64,000 nt of DNA from Escherichia coli (GTDB lineage Bacteria > Pseudomonadota > Gammaproteobacteria > Enterobacterales > Enterobacteriaceae). The stretch's first letter is position 1, and every line of letters begins with the position of its first letter. The notes below the pieces were generated by a model. The model ran no database searches and was not told where the DNA came from. It saw only the letters and a list, made by a program, of their open reading frames with translations. The translations under genes and the position numbers were made by a program. Of this stretch, positions 264 through 16,759 are shown one piece after another. Location of the stretch: assembly GCF_003018235.1 (NCBI RefSeq), contig NZ_CP027437.1; one strand, given 5' to 3'.

Positions 264-3200
264 ATGGCAGTAAAGATTTCAGGTGTACTGAAAGACGGCA
301 CAGGAAAACCGGTACAGAACTGCACAATCCAGCTGAAAGCAAAACGTAACAGCACCACGGTGGTGGTGAACACGCTGGCCTCAGAAAATCCGGATGAAGC
401 CGGGCGTTACAGTATGGACGTTGAGTATGGTCAGTACAGCGTTATTCTGTTGGTGGAGGGATTCCCGCCGTCACATGCCGGGACTATCACCGTGTATGAA
501 GATTCTCAACCCGGTACGCTGAATGATTTTCTCGGTGCCATGACGGAGGATGATGCCCGTCCGGAGGCACTGCGCCGTTTTGAAGTGATGGTGGAAGAGG
601 TGGCGCGTAACGCGTCCGCAGTGGCACAGAACACGGCAGCCGCGAAGAAGTCAGCCGGCGATGCCAGCACATCAGCCCGTGAGGCGGCAACCCATGCGAC
701 TGATGCTGCAGACTCAGCACGCGCAGCCAGCACGTCAGCCGGACAGGCCGTGTCGTCGGCTCAGTCAGCGTCTTCCAGCGCAGGAACTGCATCAGCAAAG
801 GCCACTGAAGCATCAAAAAGTGCTGCCGCTGCAGAGTCCTCAAAAAGCGCGGCGGCCACCAGTGCCGGTGCGGCAAAAACGTCAGAAACGAATGCTTCAG
901 CGTCACAACAATCAGCAGCCACTTCTGCATCCACCGCGACCACGAAAGCGTCAGAAGCTGCCACCTCAGCCCGGGATGCGGCGGCCTCAAAAGAGGCAGC
1001 GAAATCATCAGAAACGAACGCATCCTCGAGCGCCAGTAGTTCCGCTTCCTCGGCAACGGCGGCAGGAAATTCCGCGAAGGCGGCAAAAACGTCCGAGACG
1101 AACGCCAGGTCTTCTGAGACGGCAGCGGGACAGAGCGCCTCAGCTGCGGCAGGCTCAAAAACAGCGGCTGCATCATCTGCCAGTGCCGCGTCAACAAGTG
1201 CCGGGCAGGCCTCAGCCAGTGCCACTGCCGCCGGAAAATTGGCAGAAAGCGCTGCATTGTCCGCTTCAACAGCCACAACGAAGGCTGGCGAAGCCGCTGA
1301 ACAGGCCAGCGCAGCAGCGAGGTCTGCATCCGCAGCGAAGACATCCGAAACGAACGCGAAAGCGTCGGAAACCAGTGCAGAATCCTCAAAAACGGCAGCT
1401 GCATCGTCCGCCAGTTCGGCGGCGTCATCGGCATCATCTGCGTCTGCTTCAAAAGATGAGGCGACCAGACAGGCATCAGCAGCGAAAGGCAGCGCCACGA
1501 CGGCATCCACGAAGGCGACAGAGGCTGCTGGCAGTGCGACGGCGGCAGCACAGAGCAAGAATACGGCAGAATCCGCAGCAACGCGCGCCGAGACAGCAGC
1601 TAAACGGGCAGAGGATATTGCATCCGCCGTGGCGCTTGAGGATGCAAGTACGACGAAAAAGGGGATAGTACAGCTCAGCAGTGCGACCAACAGTTCGTCT
1701 GAAACGCTGGCGGCAACGCCAAAGGCAGTAAAATCAGCCTATGACAATGCAGAGAAACGTCTGCAGAAAGACCAGAACGGCGCTGATATACCCGATAAGG
1801 GACGCTTCCTGAACAACATTAACGCGGTCAGTAAAACAGACTTTGCTGATAAGCGTGGTATGCGTTATGTGCGGGTTAACGCTCCTGCAGGTGCAATATC
1901 TGGAAAATATTACCCTGTTGTTGTTATGCGTTCTGCTGGCTCAGTAAGCGAACTGGCATCAAGGGTCATTATCACCACGGCAACGCGAACCGCAGGCGAT
2001 CCGATGAATAACTGCGAGTTTAACGGATTTGTTATGCCTGGTGGCTGGACTGACAGGGGGCGTTATGCTTATGGAATGTTCTGGCAATATCAAAACAATG
2101 AACGAGCCATCCACTCAATAATGATGAGTAATAAGGGCGATGATTTGCGCTCTGTGTTCTATGTTGATGGCGCTGCTTTCCCTGTTTTTGCGTTTATCGA
2201 AGATGGCCTGTCAATATCCGCACCTGGTGCTGATCTCGTTGTTAATGATACGACCTATAAGTTTGGGGCAACAAATCCGGCGACTGAATGTATCGCGGCG
2301 GACGTTATCCTTGATTTTAAGAGTGGGCGTGGTTTTTATGAGTCTCATTCGTTAATTGTTAACGATAACTTGTCGTGCAAAAAACTTTTTGCCACAGACG
2401 AAATTGTAGCGCGTGGTGGTAATCAGATTCGAATGATAGGTGGGGAGTATGGTGCATTATGGCGTAATGATGGCGCTAAAACTTACCTGCTGCTTACCAA
2501 TCGAGGTGATGTTTATGGTGGCTGGAATACATTAAGACCGTTTGCTATTGATAACGCAACCGGCGAACTGGTTATTGGAACCAAACTGTCCGCAAGTCTG
2601 AACGGTAATGCATTAACAGCAACAAAGCTGCAAACGCCAAGACTGGTTTCTGGTGTTGAGTTTGATGGTTCCAAAGATATTACTTTAACCGCCGCGCATG
2701 TGGCTGCTTTTGCCAGAAGGGCAACGGATACATATGCCGATGCGGATGGTGGCGTTCCCTGGAATGCCGAATCAGGCGCTTACAATGTCACCCGCTCTGG
2801 CGACAGCTATATTCTGGTTAACTTCTATACCGGAGTCGGAAGTTGCCGGACCCTGCAGATGAAGGCGCATTACAGAAATGGTGGTCTGTTCTACCGTTCT
2901 TCAAGAGATGGCTATGGTTTTGAGGAAGACTGGGCAGAAGTTTATACCTCGAAAAATCTTCCACCAGAAAGCTACCCAGTCGGCGCACCAATCCCGTGGC
3001 CATCAGATACCGTTCCGTCTGGTTATGCCCTGATGCAGGGGCAGACTTTTGACAAATCTGCCTACCCGAAACTTGCAGCCGCTTATCCGTCAGGCGTGAT
3101 CCCTGATATGCGTGGCTGGACGATTAAGGGCAAGCCCGCCAGTGGTCGTGCCGTATTGTCTCAGGAACAGGATGGCATTAAATCGCATACCCACAGCGCC

Positions 3201-3677: not shown

Positions 3678-4252
3678 TGGCATTCAGAATGAGTGAACAA
3701 GCACGGACCATAAAAATTTATAACCTGCTGGCCGGAACTAATGAATTTATTGGTGAAGGTGACGCATATATTCCTCCTCATACAGGTCTGCCTGCAAACA
3801 GTACCGATATTGCACCGCCAGATATTCCGGCTGGCTTTGTGGCTGTTTTCAACAGTGATGAGGCATCGTGGCATCTCGTTGAAGACCATCGGGGAAAAAC
3901 GGTCTATGACGTGGCTTCCGGCGACGCGTTATTTATTTCTGAACTCGGCTCATTACCGGAAAATGTCACCTGGTTATCCCCGGAAGGGGAGTTTCAGAAG
4001 TGGAACGGTACAGCCTGGGTGAAGGATACGGAAGCAGAAAAACTGTTCCGGATCCGGGAGGCGGAAGAAACAAAAAACAGCCTGATGCAGGTAGCCAGTG
4101 AGCATATAGCGCCGCTTCAGGATGCTGTGGATCTGGAGATCGCAACGGAGGAAGAAACCTTGTTGCTGGAAGCCTGGAAAAAGTATCGGGTGTTGCTGAA
4201 CCGTGTTGATACATCAACTGCACCGGATATTGAATGGCCAGCCCTACCGTAG
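3677..4252 (+). CDS. tfa: Tail fibre assembly protein Tfa
   Basis: 191 aa, [24 protein letters not shown]..., lambda Tfa-like; the start overlaps the stf stop (TAATG). Confidence 0.9.
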
Positions 4253-14240: not shown

Positions 14241-15131
14241 ATGATCAAGAAGACAACGGAAATTGATGCCATCTTGTTAAATCTCAATAAGGCTATCGAT
14301 GCCCACTACCAGTGGCTGGTAAGTATGTTTCGCAGCGTAGTCGCGAGAGATGCCAGTAAGCCAGAAATAACGGATAACCATTCTTATGGACTGTGCCAGT
14401 TTGGTCGGTGGATTGATCATCTGGGACCACTCGATAATGATGAATTACCTTATGTTCGGCTAATGGATTCTGCCCATCAACATATGCATAACTGTGGTCG
14501 GGAATTAATGCTGGCTATTGTTGAAAATCACTGGCAGGACGCGCATTTCGACGCCTTTCAGGAGGGGTTGCTTTCTTTTACTGCGGCATTAACCGATTAC
14601 AAAATTTATTTGCTGACGATCCGTAGCAATATGGATGTTTTGACGGGATTGCCGGGTCGTCGGGTTCTTGATGAATCCTTTGATCATCAGTTACGCAACG
14701 CTGAGCCTCTGAATCTTTATTTAATGTTGTTGGATATTGACCGATTTAAATTGGTTAATGATACCTACGGGCATTTAATCGGCGATGTAGTATTACGCAC
14801 CCTGGCAACTTACTTAGCCAGTTGGACGCGCGATTACGAAACGGTTTATCGCTACGGTGGCGAAGAATTTATCATTATTGTCAAAGCGGCTAATGATGAA
14901 GAAGCATGTCGTGCAGGTATCAGAATTTGCCAGTTAGTCGATAACCATGCCATCACACATTCTGAAGGGCATATCAACATTACCGTGACAGCAGGTGTGA
15001 GTCGCGCATTTCCTGAAGAGCCTCTGGATGTGGTCATTGGAAGAGCGGACCGGGCAATGTATGAGGGTAAGCAAACCGGAAGAAATCGCTGTATGTTTAT
15101 TGACGAACAAAACGTGATTAACCGAGTTTAA
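14241..15131 (+). CDS. dgcZ: Diguanylate cyclase DgcZ (zinc-sensing CZB domain plus GGDEF)
   Basis: 296 aa from MIKKTTEIDAILLNLNKAIDAHYQW...; GGEEF motif; AAGGAG RBS at 14229-14234. Confidence 0.95.
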   Translation: MIKKTTEIDAILLNLNKAIDAHYQWLVSMFRSVVARDASKPEITDNHSYGLCQFGRWIDHLGPLDNDELPYVRLMDSAHQHMHNCGRELMLAIVENHWQDAHFDAFQEGLLSFTAALTDYKIYLLTIRSNMDVLTGLPGRRVLDESFDHQLRNAEPLNLYLMLLDIDRFKLVNDTYGHLIGDVVLRTLATYLASWTRDYETVYRYGGEEFIIIVKAANDEEACRAGIRICQLVDNHAITHSEGHINITVTAGVSRAFPEEPLDVVIGRADRAMYEGKQTGRNRCMFIDEQNVINRV

Positions 15132-15141
15132 GCTCCGTTTA
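15125..15141 (+). promoter_or_regulatory. PhoP box (aGTTTA-N5-cGTTTA) overlapping the dgcZ stop, candidate promoter for mgrR
   Basis: Direct hexamer repeat with 11-bp periodicity; a candidate -10 (AAAACT) lies 11 nt downstream. Confidence 0.5.
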
Positions 15142-15165
15142 ACATTCATTGAGAAAACTGATGCT

Positions 15166-15274
15166 ACTGTGTCAACGATCCGTTATCAGTGCAGGAAAAT
15201 GCCTGTTAGCGTAAAAGCAAAACACAAATCTATCCATGCAAGCATTCACCGCCGGTTTACTGGCGGTTTTTTTT
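15166..15274 (+). ncRNA. mgrR: Candidate PhoP-dependent sRNA MgrR (about 100 nt)
   Basis: Non-coding stretch between the PhoP box/-10 and an intrinsic terminator (ACCGCC stem 15248-15267 plus T-tract), convergent with mgtS; matches the known genomic context of MgrR. The 5' end is approximate. Confidence 0.5.
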
Positions 15275-15282
15275 CGCCGTCA

Positions 15283-15322
15283 TAAAAATCAGGCCCCTTG
15301 TACACAGTTGTAACAAGGGGCC
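15283..15322 (-). terminator. Intrinsic terminator of mgtS
   Basis: GGCCCCTTGT / ACAAGGGGCC stem, with a plus-strand A-tract at 15284-15289 that is a U-tract on the minus transcript. Confidence 0.65.
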
Positions 15323-15349
15323 GGTTAGGTGAGGGATTATCTCCGTTCA

Positions 15350-15445
15350 TTAGTCATCCCATTTGTGGCTGAAATACGCGGCCAGAAAACCAGAAAATAA
15401 AATTATTCCCAGTACGGCCATAAAAACATTCATATTACCCAGCAT
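15350..15445 (-). CDS. mgtS: 31-aa inner-membrane small protein MgtS (YneM)
   Basis: Reverse-strand translation gives MLGNMNVFMAVLGIILFSGFLAAYFSHKWDD; GGAGG RBS. Found by manual reading and absent from the ORF track because it is under 60 aa. Confidence 0.85.
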   Translation of the reverse strand: MLGNMNVFMAVLGIILFSGFLAAYFSHKWDD

Positions 15446-15511
15446 TATTTGCCTCCGTTTATGGTGTGGTGTGTTTCCTCGCTTACCTTAATTTTCATCT
15501 CAATGAGAAAG

Positions 15512-15545
15512 ATATTAGCAGAGGTAACCTAAACGAAGGCTGAAT
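15512..15545 (-). promoter_or_regulatory. Candidate PhoP-type promoter of mgtS (degenerate box ATTCAG-N5-GTTTAG plus -10 TAATAT)
   Basis: Same box-to-(-10) spacing (11 nt) as the mgrR promoter; a shared cattgaga motif lies downstream of both. Confidence 0.4.
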
Positions 15546-15571
15546 TAAATTTTTATTGTGTTCGACTTAAA

Positions 15572-16759
15572 TCAACAAAGCGCGGGCTGCCCCCACGGTC
15601 TTGCACGAATTCCTTTTAACATCAGCACCCACGCAGCAACGATCACCAACGCTAAGATGATAAACAGCGAGAAAGGCGGCAGACTGGTAAGTACTATGCC
15701 ACTCACTAATGGGTTAATCGCCGCACCAAGCCAGCCTAAAGACTGGGCGGAAAAATAGCTGGCTTTCATTCCTGGCGGTGCAATATGGTCAATCAACATA
15801 TACTCGCCCGGCGCATAAATGATTTCACCGACAGTAAATACCGCAGCTGACATACCCCACAATAGCAGGCTGTTGCCGGAAAAAATAAAACCAACCAGAC
15901 CGATGACGAAACAGAGGGTGCCTGCTGTCATCAGCGCGCGGATGTTAGCCGGGTTAAGGCGGCGGCCCACGGAATATTGCAACGTAACCACCATGGCAGC
16001 ATTCACCGGAAGAACAACCGCGACCACCTTTTCGGCAAAATCCCCATCAGCAATCACCATCACATATTGTGAAATGCACGAGGCAAATGCGCCGCTAACA
16101 AAGGAAGCCAGAAAACCAGAGCAGGTAAACCACAACAGTGCTTTATCTTGTAATAAAACTTTCGGCGACCAGGCACTGCCTGTTTCCGTGGCGATGATTT
16201 TCTCGCTGCGCTTTACCCAAATTTGAATGAAAAGCATGGGAAACGCGGAACAGATAGCTGCCAGCCAGAAGGGCAGATTGATGCTCTGCATCACCAACAA
16301 CGTGCCGAGCGGCGGACCGATGGTCCAGCCAATGTTTAGCATGGTGTAGTTGATTGAGAAGATTTTCGTTTTGCTGGTGGACGAAAGATTGTCGGCAAAC
16401 CAGGCTTTCAACACGGTAGCAAAAACGGAATAGGCGCAGTTAATGAGGGCAAAAAAGAGCACCACCAGCGTCACGTTATTCACTAAAGGAATGGCAATAA
16501 AACCGCTGGCGAAGGCGGTAATTGCCAGTAACATATAGCGTTTCTTGTCGAACTTATCCGCCAGGATACCAAAACCGAGGCTAAAAACGACGCCAATAGT
16601 GAGCGCAATTGTCATCGCATAACCGATTAGATCGACACTCAGGTTGTACTGGCGACTCAAGTAAATGGTCATAAACGGCAGCGTAGCGCCGCGTCCGATG
16701 GTTAATAACAACGACGAGGCAAGAAGGGCGCTGGTAGAGCGTCGGAGGGATAAGTTCAT
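15572..16759 (-). CDS. ydeE: MFS transporter YdeE (dipeptide/drug exporter)
   Basis: 395 aa, 12-TM MFS architecture, synteny. Confidence 0.9.
   Translation of the reverse strand: MNLSLRRSTSALLASSLLLTIGRGATLPFMTIYLSRQYNLSVDLIGYAMTIALTIGVVFSLGFGILADKFDKKRYMLLAITAFASGFIAIPLVNNVTLVVLFFALINCAYSVFATVLKAWFADNLSSTSKTKIFSINYTMLNIGWTIGPPLGTLLVMQSINLPFWLAAICSAFPMLFIQIWVKRSEKIIATETGSAWSPKVLLQDKALLWFTCSGFLASFVSGAFASCISQYVMVIADGDFAEKVVAVVLPVNAAMVVTLQYSVGRRLNPANIRALMTAGTLCFVIGLVGFIFSGNSLLLWGMSAAVFTVGEIIYAPGEYMLIDHIAPPGMKASYFSAQSLGWLGAAINPLVSGIVLTSLPPFSLFIILALVIVAAWVLMLKGIRARPWGQPALC

Follow-up and report, generated by a model that had tools for sequence, protein, structure and literature searches.

The region at positions 15125-15545 of the window, by which we mean the whole 64,000-nucleotide stretch of Escherichia coli DNA analysed here, is the dgcZ / mgrR / mgtT-mgtS / ydeE intergenic region of this species, and it is almost certainly the known PhoQ/PhoP-controlled convergent pair of E. 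coli, formed by the small RNA gene mgrR and by mgtS(-mgtT). No evidence contradicts this identification. The E. coli magnesium-stress locus is well studied and has been characterised since 2008-2009; Moon and Gottesman 2009 is reportedly the primary paper on mgrR. The locus is thus already known, and everything essential about it is published. Of 5426 complete E. coli genomes, 5416 contain the intergenic region, and the gene order dgcZ, mgtT, mgtS, ydeE is annotated in the matching E. coli records listed. Strain MEW was tried as a co-linear map for window position 56.9 kb; the sequence was not found there, and direct BLAST was used instead. On the plus strand, dgcZ, encoding a diguanylate cyclase, occupies 14241..15131 (RefSeq annotation carried over from a strain identical at window positions 15000-15700), matches NCBIfam NF007380 with 521.6 bits, and ends in the stop codon TAA at 15129-15131.

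Convergent transcription and PhoPQ dependence of mgrR and mgtS have been described (10.1101/2021.06.30.450655), and mgrR-lacZ and yneM-lacZ fusions act like reporters of the PhoP regulon in K-12 (PMC3536696). At low Mg2+, PhoQ phosphorylates PhoP and both mgrR and mgtS are induced, as has been shown in the literature. The first-pass annotation of this DNA had proposed a convergent PhoP-controlled mgrR/mgtS pair. This proposal is borne out: each element that it described lies at the given coordinates or a few bases away, with the identities of the genes established by alignment and profile matches, and convergence and PhoPQ dependence taken from these two reports. A reader working from sequence alone had in this way recovered an authentic sRNA and an authentic gene of 31 codons, which ordinary ORF calling hides. 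Our analysis adds precision on the 5' end of MgrR, on PhoP half-sites conserved across genera, and on the mgtS transcript, which carries two more small ORFs.

The Hfq-dependent sRNA MgrR represses eptB and ygdQ. The 98-nt K-12 RefSeq ncRNA mgrR (b4698) aligns to 15177..15274 on the plus strand with 97 of 98 nt identical; the sole substitution lies at nt 4, which is C in the window, the majority base across genera, and T in K-12. The neighbours are those of the K-12 gene (dgcZ upstream, mgtT-mgtS convergent), and the seed, the A-rich Hfq site, the 5' stem-loop, and the U8 terminator are all the same. The Rfam model RF01407 (STnc560) matched over its full length with 280.2 bits (gathering score, 55; E = 4.9e-64). 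Thus, the noncoding unit of about 100 nt with an intrinsic terminator, put forward as a candidate mgrR in the first-pass annotation, is indeed this gene. That annotation had let the assignment depend on the published MgrR sequence mapping to 15166-15274, and it stands, because b4698 falls inside this interval. The Rfam model, at 214 nt, is wider than the MgrR RNA and also spans promoter DNA, the terminator of mgtS on the opposite strand, and the mgtS 3' end. A literature search found no papers naming both "MgrR" and "STnc560"; it is the coordinates that point to the equivalence of the two.

The RNA from 15177 to 15274 folds at -25.9 kcal/mol (z = -2.9); its 5' stem-loop (15181-15211) is followed by a single-stranded, A-rich center and by the terminator. 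In this predicted fold, nt 36-71 are largely unpaired and are followed at the end of the RNA by an 8-bp stem and U8. As modeled, MgrR would have the makeup of an Hfq module, namely an A-rich (ARN) stretch left single-stranded and, with its poly-U tail, a Rho-independent terminator, both of which have also been described for MgrR in the literature (10.1101/2021.06.30.450655; PMC6239178). The seed U55-A68 (UAUCCAUGCAAGCA; 15231..15244, plus strand) pairs with the eptB and ygdQ mRNAs (PMC6239178), and the 20-mer containing it is exactly conserved at 98 loci from 18 named enterobacterial genera. The published residue numbering (G41, U55, A68, U8 tail, 98 nt; PMC6239178) is compatible with a start at 15177 only. 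From the RefSeq annotation, this numbering, and the conservation of the -10 element, we place the 5' end of MgrR at 15177. Transcription would then proceed from 15177 to the U8 terminator ending at 15274 and yield the 98-nt Hfq-binding RNA, whose single-stranded seed would pair with eptB, ygdQ, and other mRNAs.

The protein-coding gene of the pair, mgtS (formerly yneM), specifies a 31-aa membrane protein, which stabilises MgtA. The ORF at 15350..15445 on the minus strand reads MLGNMNVFMAVLGIILFSGFLAAYFSHKWDD, matches the NCBIfam equivalog NF033842 (small_MgtS) over residues 1-31 of 31 with 80.6 bits against a cut-off of 35, and is annotated as mgtS among the matching E. coli records listed, so that its earlier reading as a 31-aa ORF with the MgtS sequence was correct. 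In 27 orthologues across genera, variability at codon positions 1 / 2 / 3 was 0.053 / 0.017 / 0.226; mgtS evolves as a protein-coding gene. It resembles known MgtS (YneM) in its full-length equivalog match, its position and orientation, and its conserved PhoP-type promoter, and no difference was detected between the two. The role of MgtS with respect to MgtA has been stated (10.1101/2021.06.30.450655); the mgtS mRNA codes for MgtS, and MgtS increases the levels of MgtA and of intracellular Mg2+.

Both units end in real intrinsic terminators, as indicated by folding and Term-seq and, for mgtS, by covariation. The mgrR terminator (15248..15274, plus strand) has an 8-bp GC-rich stem with a 4-nt loop at 15248-15267 and a U8 tail encoded by the T8 run at 15267-15274. 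It was the sole plus-strand terminator call in 14900-15800, and the published K-12 Term-seq 3' end 1622824(-) corresponds to window position 15267 (+). The mgtS terminator (15284..15322, minus strand) was missed by the simple terminator scan of 14900-15800, because its T run starts 3 nt past the stem. Its hairpin stem at 15292-15322 is followed on the minus strand by TGATTTTTA, with the T-tract at 15284-15288. The fold energies of the 38 distinct orthologous variants range from -20 to -28.5 kcal/mol, and a T run comes after the hairpin in every one of them. The hairpin covaries across genera: 9 of 12 pairs show compensatory changes, with 96.4% of cells paired and a match in 0 of 500 shuffles. 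The K-12 Term-seq 3' end 1622804(+) falls at window position 15287 (-). These data substantiate the earlier claim that the mgtS unit has its own terminator, at which most mgtS transcripts would stop, with a 3' end at 15287. The mgrR T8 run stops at 15274 and the mgtS T-tract begins at 15284, which leaves a gap of just 9 nt.

Downstream of mgtS lies mgtT (15246..15350, minus strand), a 34-aa ORF (MNGDNPSPNRPLVTTVYKGPDFYDGEKKPPVNRR) that is documented in the ORF list, the RefSeq annotation, and the literature. The mgtS stop codon and the mgtT ATG have one base in common (TAATG), and mgtT runs through the mgtS terminator to become antisense to the mgrR 3' end over 15246-15274 (29 nt). The first-pass annotation had described the two terminators as back to back. 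The hairpins are both real; the two units do not merely abut, however, since mgtT spans the mgtS terminator and the annotated units therefore share 29 nt. K-12 MgtT (b4775) has the same overlap of its start with the mgtS stop, the same length of 34 aa, and 33 of 34 residues identical to those of the window ORF; the difference, V15T in the window, results from two adjacent base differences in the terminator hairpin loop. The small protein MgtT (b4775) was discovered through retapamulin ribosome profiling. C-terminally tagged MgtT was seen by immunoblot (10.1101/511675), and the mgtS-mgtT operon was reported to be PhoQ-dependent (PMC11429745).

This raises the question of whether the product of mgtT is a functional, conserved protein that partners MgtS, or whether mgtT is a by-product or a regulatory ORF. 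The start of mgtT translation and a tagged product have both been observed, low Mg2+ induces its expression, and an ATG overlaps the mgtS stop at 40 of the 48 loci carrying a convergent mgtS, all of which would fit such a protein. Across genera, however, the ORF is anywhere between 7 and more than 45 codons long, with unrelated C-terminal parts, and codons 2-8 have no coding signature (variability, 0.148 / 0.201 / 0.259, versus the values given above for mgtS). Codons 9-21 are the terminator stem-loop itself and are thus constrained as RNA. Moreover, neither deletion nor overexpression of mgtT had a phenotype (PMC11429745). Outside Escherichia, lengths of 7 to more than 45 aa, no third-position bias, and unrelated C-termini do not describe a conserved protein. 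From the variable length and the absent coding signature, we judge a conserved MgtT protein to be unlikely.

The annotated mgtT ORF, crossing an experimentally supported terminator, poses a small testable question of non-stop translation and read-through. The main mgtS 3' end at 15287 falls in codon 22 of the 34 mgtT codons. Normally terminated mgtS transcripts therefore carry mgtT as a non-stop ORF, and ribosomes translating it on an mRNA that has no mgtT stop codon would need rescue. A fraction of the mgtS transcripts would have to pass the terminator; only read-through transcripts would hold the mgtT stop codon (15246), and these would be antisense to the 3'-terminal 29 nt of MgrR. At MG1655 position 1622816, corresponding to window position 15275, an RNase III-dependent site has been reported, as have antisense transcripts (PMC5371410), and together with the C-terminally tagged MgtT (10.1101/511675) they argue for some read-through. 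It is tempting to speculate that the mgtT frame is mainly a regulatory device and not a protein gene, such that ribosomes re-initiating at TAAUG close behind RNA polymerase might block the hairpin and provoke read-through into RNA antisense to the MgrR 3' end. We consider this quite improbable; if true, it would couple mgtS translation to processing that depends on RNase III, or else to transcriptional interference with MgrR.

Both promoters were compared to the PhoP box consensus, in which a repeat resembling (T/G)GTTTA-N5-(T/G)GTTTA occupies the -35 region. In the mgrR promoter, the box CGTTTA-ACATT-CATTGA (15136..15152, plus strand; -41 to -25 relative to +1) is conserved among 94 anchored promoters at 96-100% for GTTTA and 80-100% for TTGA. 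It is followed, at the 12-nt spacing also found in MG1655 mgtA and phoP, by the extended -10 element TGcTACTGT (15162..15170), in which the first T is conserved in 95% and the G, T, A, and final T in 100% of these promoters; the -10 hexamer ends at 15170, 6 nt upstream of the annotated 5' end at 15177. The mgtS promoter (15512..15546, minus strand) comprises the box AATTCA-GCCTT-CGTTTA (15546..15530) and, again 12 nt away as in mgtA and phoP, the -10 element TAATAT (15517..15512). GTTTA is conserved at 82-100% and the TA/T positions of the -10 element at 95-100% in 47 orthologous upstream regions, in support of the PhoP-type mgtS promoter suggested earlier. The predicted mgtS +1 lies near 15504-15505, and transcription would start near 15505. 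A simple sigma-70 scan of 14900-15800 found no promoter, as expected for activator-dependent promoters without a -35 element.

By motif, spacing, and conservation, both boxes belong to the PhoP box class and are predicted PhoP sites. Conservation of the motifs likewise suggests that PhoP occupies the specific half-sites at mgrR and mgtS. PhoP would bind the direct-repeat box in place of the -35 element, at 15136-15152 for mgrR and at 15546-15530 for mgtS, each 12 nt from the -10 element. Canonical PhoP-activated promoters (mgtA, phoP P1) share this arrangement, with a direct repeat of (T/G)GTTTA-like hexamers 5 nt apart taking the place of the -35 element and a 12-nt gap between the repeat and the -10 element. 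In contrast to these, the two promoters in the window each have one degenerate half-site: against the core GTTTA (positions 2-6, position 1 being variable), there are two mismatches in the second half-site of mgrR (CATTGA) and two in the first half-site of mgtS (AATTCA), both weak matches to (T/G)GTTTA.

E. coli mgrR further differs from mgtA and phoP P1 by having a third half-site in phase with the other two, AGTTTA at 15125..15130 (plus strand), which lies one turn of the helix upstream and over the last dgcZ codons. With it, a perfect repeat AGTTTA-AGCTC-CGTTTA is formed at 15125-15141, overlapping the dgcZ stop codon. The 64-kb window has three copies of GTTTA-N6-GTTTA where 0.11 would be expected, a count that none of 100 shuffles attained. 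The first-pass annotation had taken this repeat as the PhoP site. The repeat is present; as a box shared across genera it fails, its half-site over the dgcZ stop codon not being kept outside Escherichia, since the conserved box at 15136-15152 has only its own first half-site in common with it and no base of the upstream half-site exceeds 55% at any position in the 94 anchored promoters. The earlier geometry, in which PhoP uses the perfect repeat together with a -10 element AAAACT (15154-15159) to direct a start near 15166 and a 109-nt RNA, draws on the repeat being the best consensus match in the region and on this weak -10-like hexamer 12 nt past it, a spacing as in mgtA and phoP. However, annotated MgrR comprises 98 nt from 15177, the only start that the published positions G41, U55, and A68 fit, and neither the upstream half-site nor AAAACT is conserved, whereas CGTTTA-N5-yrTTGA and TGnTAnnnT are nearly invariant in the 94 orthologous promoters. 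We therefore hold this geometry to be very improbable, even if the three E. coli half-sites, in phase at 11-bp steps, may permit a minor second start. A unit start about 25 nt past the repeat, at 15166, was thus wrong; the annotated start at 15177 lies 35 nt past it.

Terminators that are bidirectional or overlap are a general phenomenon at convergent gene pairs. The mgrR/mgtS junction resembles such pairs in that the transcript ends lie a few nucleotides apart, read-through makes complementary RNA, and an RNase III-dependent site is reported at the junction, and it differs from them in that Escherichia has two separate unidirectional terminators and no single shared hairpin. In Kluyvera, where mgtS adjoins the mgrR terminator, a hairpin may be shared. 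It is scarcely credible that the hairpin at 15292-15322 belongs instead to the plus-strand RNA and forms a second stem there, in an extended MgrR/STnc560 transcript, a reading implied by the 214-nt Rfam model, which takes it in on the plus strand at model positions 148-183: on that strand it comes after the U8 terminator and is followed by GGTTAGG and no U run, on the minus strand a T-rich run follows it in 38 of 38 variants, the K-12 Term-seq 3' end lies in this T run on the mgtS strand, and MgrR has a length of 98 nt.

Apart from mgtT, a second small ORF of the mgtS transcript, a 17-aa leader ORF (MKIKVSEETHHTINGGK; 15445..15498, minus strand), was found by translation; the first-pass annotation had overlooked both. 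Of the loci aligned, only the window and two E. coli-type loci have its ATG. Its stop codon overlaps the mgtS ATG as TAATG, and the ORF is identical to the published CDS58 (PMC12350097, supplementary file 5).

The interval between dgcZ (+; end at 15131, stop codon 15129-15131; NCBIfam NF007380, 521.6 bits) and ydeE (15572-16759, -; NF007472, 799 bits) holds the convergent mgrR/mgtS locus, which is already known in detail; the remaining novelty lies only in the relationship between mgtT and the mgtS terminator. The first-pass annotation had described a direct repeat, a plus-strand terminator, a second hairpin, and a 31-codon ORF in this interval, and all of them are present as described. The region was carried by 5416 of 5426 complete E. 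coli genomes, and the features beneath the match, among the records listed, were dgcZ, mgtT, mgtS, and ydeE. In strain EC8 (genome match H51, NZ_CP060953.1), the match was in two pieces, with an IS200C-family transposase annotated beneath. In the window, ydeE is intact at 395 aa; it is annotated as frameshifted in strain MEW (comparison locus L001), whose sequence matches 15000-15700 of the window exactly.

The candidate MgrR was confirmed by the published K-12 RNA. MG1655 mgrR (b4698, 1622817-1622914) aligned to 15177-15274 (+), 98 nt with a single difference at nt 4 (alignment A1), and a whole-window scan returned a full-length match to Rfam RF01407 (STnc560, "Hfq binding RNA") at 15143-15356 (+), scoring 280 bits (gathering score 55). 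In an independent structure-probing study, MgrR is a 98-nt RNA that has G41, pairs through U55-A68, and ends in a U8 tail; its main targets are eptB and ygdQ (PMC6239178). Since these residue letters fit the window bases only if numbering begins at 15177, we place +1 at this position. A unit start at 15166, as initially proposed, was not upheld; the annotated start is 15177, supported by a conserved extended -10 element ending 6 nt before it. MgrR is predicted to fold into a 5' stem-loop and the terminator, with an open A-rich stretch between them (-25.9 kcal/mol, z = -2.9), in agreement with the published probing. At 214 nt, the STnc560 model is over twice as long as MgrR; it takes in promoter DNA, the mgtS stop, and a portion of mgtT, and treats the opposite-strand mgtS terminator as a plus-strand hairpin. 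Family matches make the RNA look longer than it is.

The 31-codon ORF (15350-15445, -) matched the NCBIfam equivalog small_MgtS along its entire length (80.6 bits, cut-off 35), which establishes it as MgtS. Published work describes mgrR and mgtS as convergently transcribed and PhoPQ-dependent, and MgtS as interacting with the importer MgtA and raising its level (10.1101/2021.06.30.450655); fusions of mgrR and mgtS (formerly yneM) to lacZ behaved as direct PhoP targets (PMC3536696).

The PhoP-type direct repeat reported on the dgcZ stop codon, AGTTTA-AGCTC-CGTTTA, is present at 15125-15141. A scan for the exact MgrR seed 20-mer gathered 98 loci from 18 named enterobacterial genera, and 94 promoters were anchored on the invariant GTTTA. 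Their consensus was yGTTTA (15136-41), N5, yrTTGA (15147-52), 12 nt, and TGnTAnnnT (15162-70), with key positions 95-100% conserved. The downstream half-site of the repeat is conserved across these promoters, but the half-site over the dgcZ stop (15125-30) is not, with no base above 55%. The same box-to-(-10) spacing is found in MG1655 at mgtA (GGTTTA-TCGTT-GGTTTA, 12 nt, TATTAT) and phoP (GGTTTA-TTTAA-TGTTTA, 12 nt, CATAAT). The PhoP-type promoter suggested for mgtS likewise has the mgrR layout, with AATTCA-GCCTT-CGTTTA (15546..15530, -), 12 nt, and the -10 TAATAT (15517..15512), and its GTTTA and -10 TA...T were conserved across 47 orthologues. The mgtS transcript is predicted to start near 15504-15505.

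The description of two back-to-back terminators proved correct. The mgrR terminator (15248-15274, +) is a GC-rich hairpin followed by T8, and the longer mgtS hairpin (15292-15322, -) is followed by TGATTTTTA on the minus strand. All 38 distinct orthologous versions of the latter folded (-20 to -28.5 kcal/mol) with a T-rich run after the hairpin. In the alignment of these hairpins (A2), two-sided changes occurred in 9/12 stem pairs and 96.4% of cells were paired; neither shuffles nor slid registers approached these values. K-12 Term-seq 3' ends at 1622824 (-) and 1622804 (+) (PMC7815308, supplementary file 1) correspond to 15267 (+), in the mgrR terminator, and 15287 (-), in the T run of the mgtS terminator. 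The sole mgtS-terminator differences from K-12 are two adjacent loop bases (15307-15308), giving on the plus strand AGTT in the window versus AACT in K-12. These are mutual reverse complements, as would be expected of a hairpin-loop inversion, and the change results in V15T in MgtT. In Kluyvera and a relative (loci L019, L039, L056, L090, and L097-L099), a diverged mgtS lacks its own hairpin and the overlapping ATG, and 5-6 nt separate its stop codon from the A8 run in the mgrR terminator; a single bidirectional terminator may be common to both genes.

Neither mgtT nor a 17-codon leader ORF appeared in the first-pass annotation. RefSeq annotates mgtT (b4775, 34 aa) at 15246-15350 (-), with its ATG and the mgtS stop having one base in common (TAATG). 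The terminator hairpin lies within mgtT, and the gene ends 29 nt inside the opposite-strand mgrR. MgtT was discovered by ribosome profiling and seen with a C-terminal tag (10.1101/511675); mgtT is induced with mgtS as an operon by low Mg2+ via PhoQ, and neither its deletion nor its overexpression gave a phenotype (PMC11429745). The main 3' end on the mgtS strand, 15287, falls within mgtT codon 22, so terminated transcripts are without the mgtT stop codon and full-length MgtT needs read-through. Detection of the C-terminally tagged protein implies that such read-through occurs. In MG1655, position 1622816 is an RNase III-dependent site in a locus for which antisense transcripts were reported (PMC5371410); it maps to 15275, one base beyond the MgrR 3' end, which fits overlapping RNAs. 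The ATG on the mgtS stop was retained in 40/48 loci with convergent mgtS. The mgtT ORF was not conserved across genera, ranging from 7 to >45 codons, and its first codons were without third-position bias (0.148/0.201/0.259, versus 0.053/0.017/0.226 for mgtS); codons 9-21 form the terminator stem-loop. Judged by these sequence features, MgtT does not resemble a conserved protein, and a regulatory role for mgtT translation is possible.

The leader ORF (15445-15498, -; 17 aa, MKIKVSEETHHTINGGK) is identical to CDS58 from a transposon-reporter screen, in which the tagged CDS58 product gave the faintest western-blot signal (PMC12350097). Its stop lies on the mgtS ATG, again as TAATG; CDS58, mgtS, and mgtT thereby form a chain of three small ORFs with identical 1-nt overlaps. 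Of the aligned loci, only two of E. coli type shared the CDS58 ATG with the window, and with a predicted start at ~15505 the ORF would be nearly leaderless. A segment of the mgtS 5' UTR, 15472-15492 (-), AATTAAGGTAAGcGAGGAAAC, showed ~50-85% per-position conservation, with most positions at ≥70%, in genera that do not retain the CDS58 reading frame, suggesting a candidate RNA-level element.

The MgrR core was present in Escherichia, Salmonella, Citrobacter, Enterobacter, Klebsiella, Raoultella, Kluyvera, Kosakonia, and others. A convergent mgtS lay ≤700 nt away in 48 of the 100 copies examined, in genera including Escherichia, Salmonella, most Citrobacter, Kosakonia, Phytobacter, Pluralibacter, Yokenella, and Kluyvera. 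Only a few loci labelled Enterobacter had it within this distance, and it was not found there in any examined Klebsiella, Lelliottia, or Leclercia locus or Raoultella isolate. Enterobacteriaceae bacterium RIT691 (L014) has the exact seed twice on the same strand, 1.6 kb apart (1436-1455 and 3030-3049), suggesting a duplicated mgrR, with convergent mgtS at one copy only. The exact seed also occurred under the non-enterobacterial or broad labels "Caldithrix sp." (MAG, L008), "Chryseobacterium sp. 18061" (L067), and "Proteobacteria bacterium" (MAG, L015), likely through contamination or mislabelling; MgtS, MgtT, and CDS58 of L008 are exact E. coli matches.

Elsewhere in the window, a full-length Rfam match to IS009 (RF02111; 221.7 bits, gathering score 117) lies at 4020-4218 (+). 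The core GTTTA-N6-GTTTA occurs 3 times in the window versus 0.11 expected. Two more perfect repeats, 56913-56928 (+) and 57918-57933 (-), face each other across a fimA-like fimbrial major-subunit gene (57155-57766, +), with ATAAT 12 nt 3' of the former; they may be PhoP sites or may have arisen by chance in the AT-rich fimbrial DNA.
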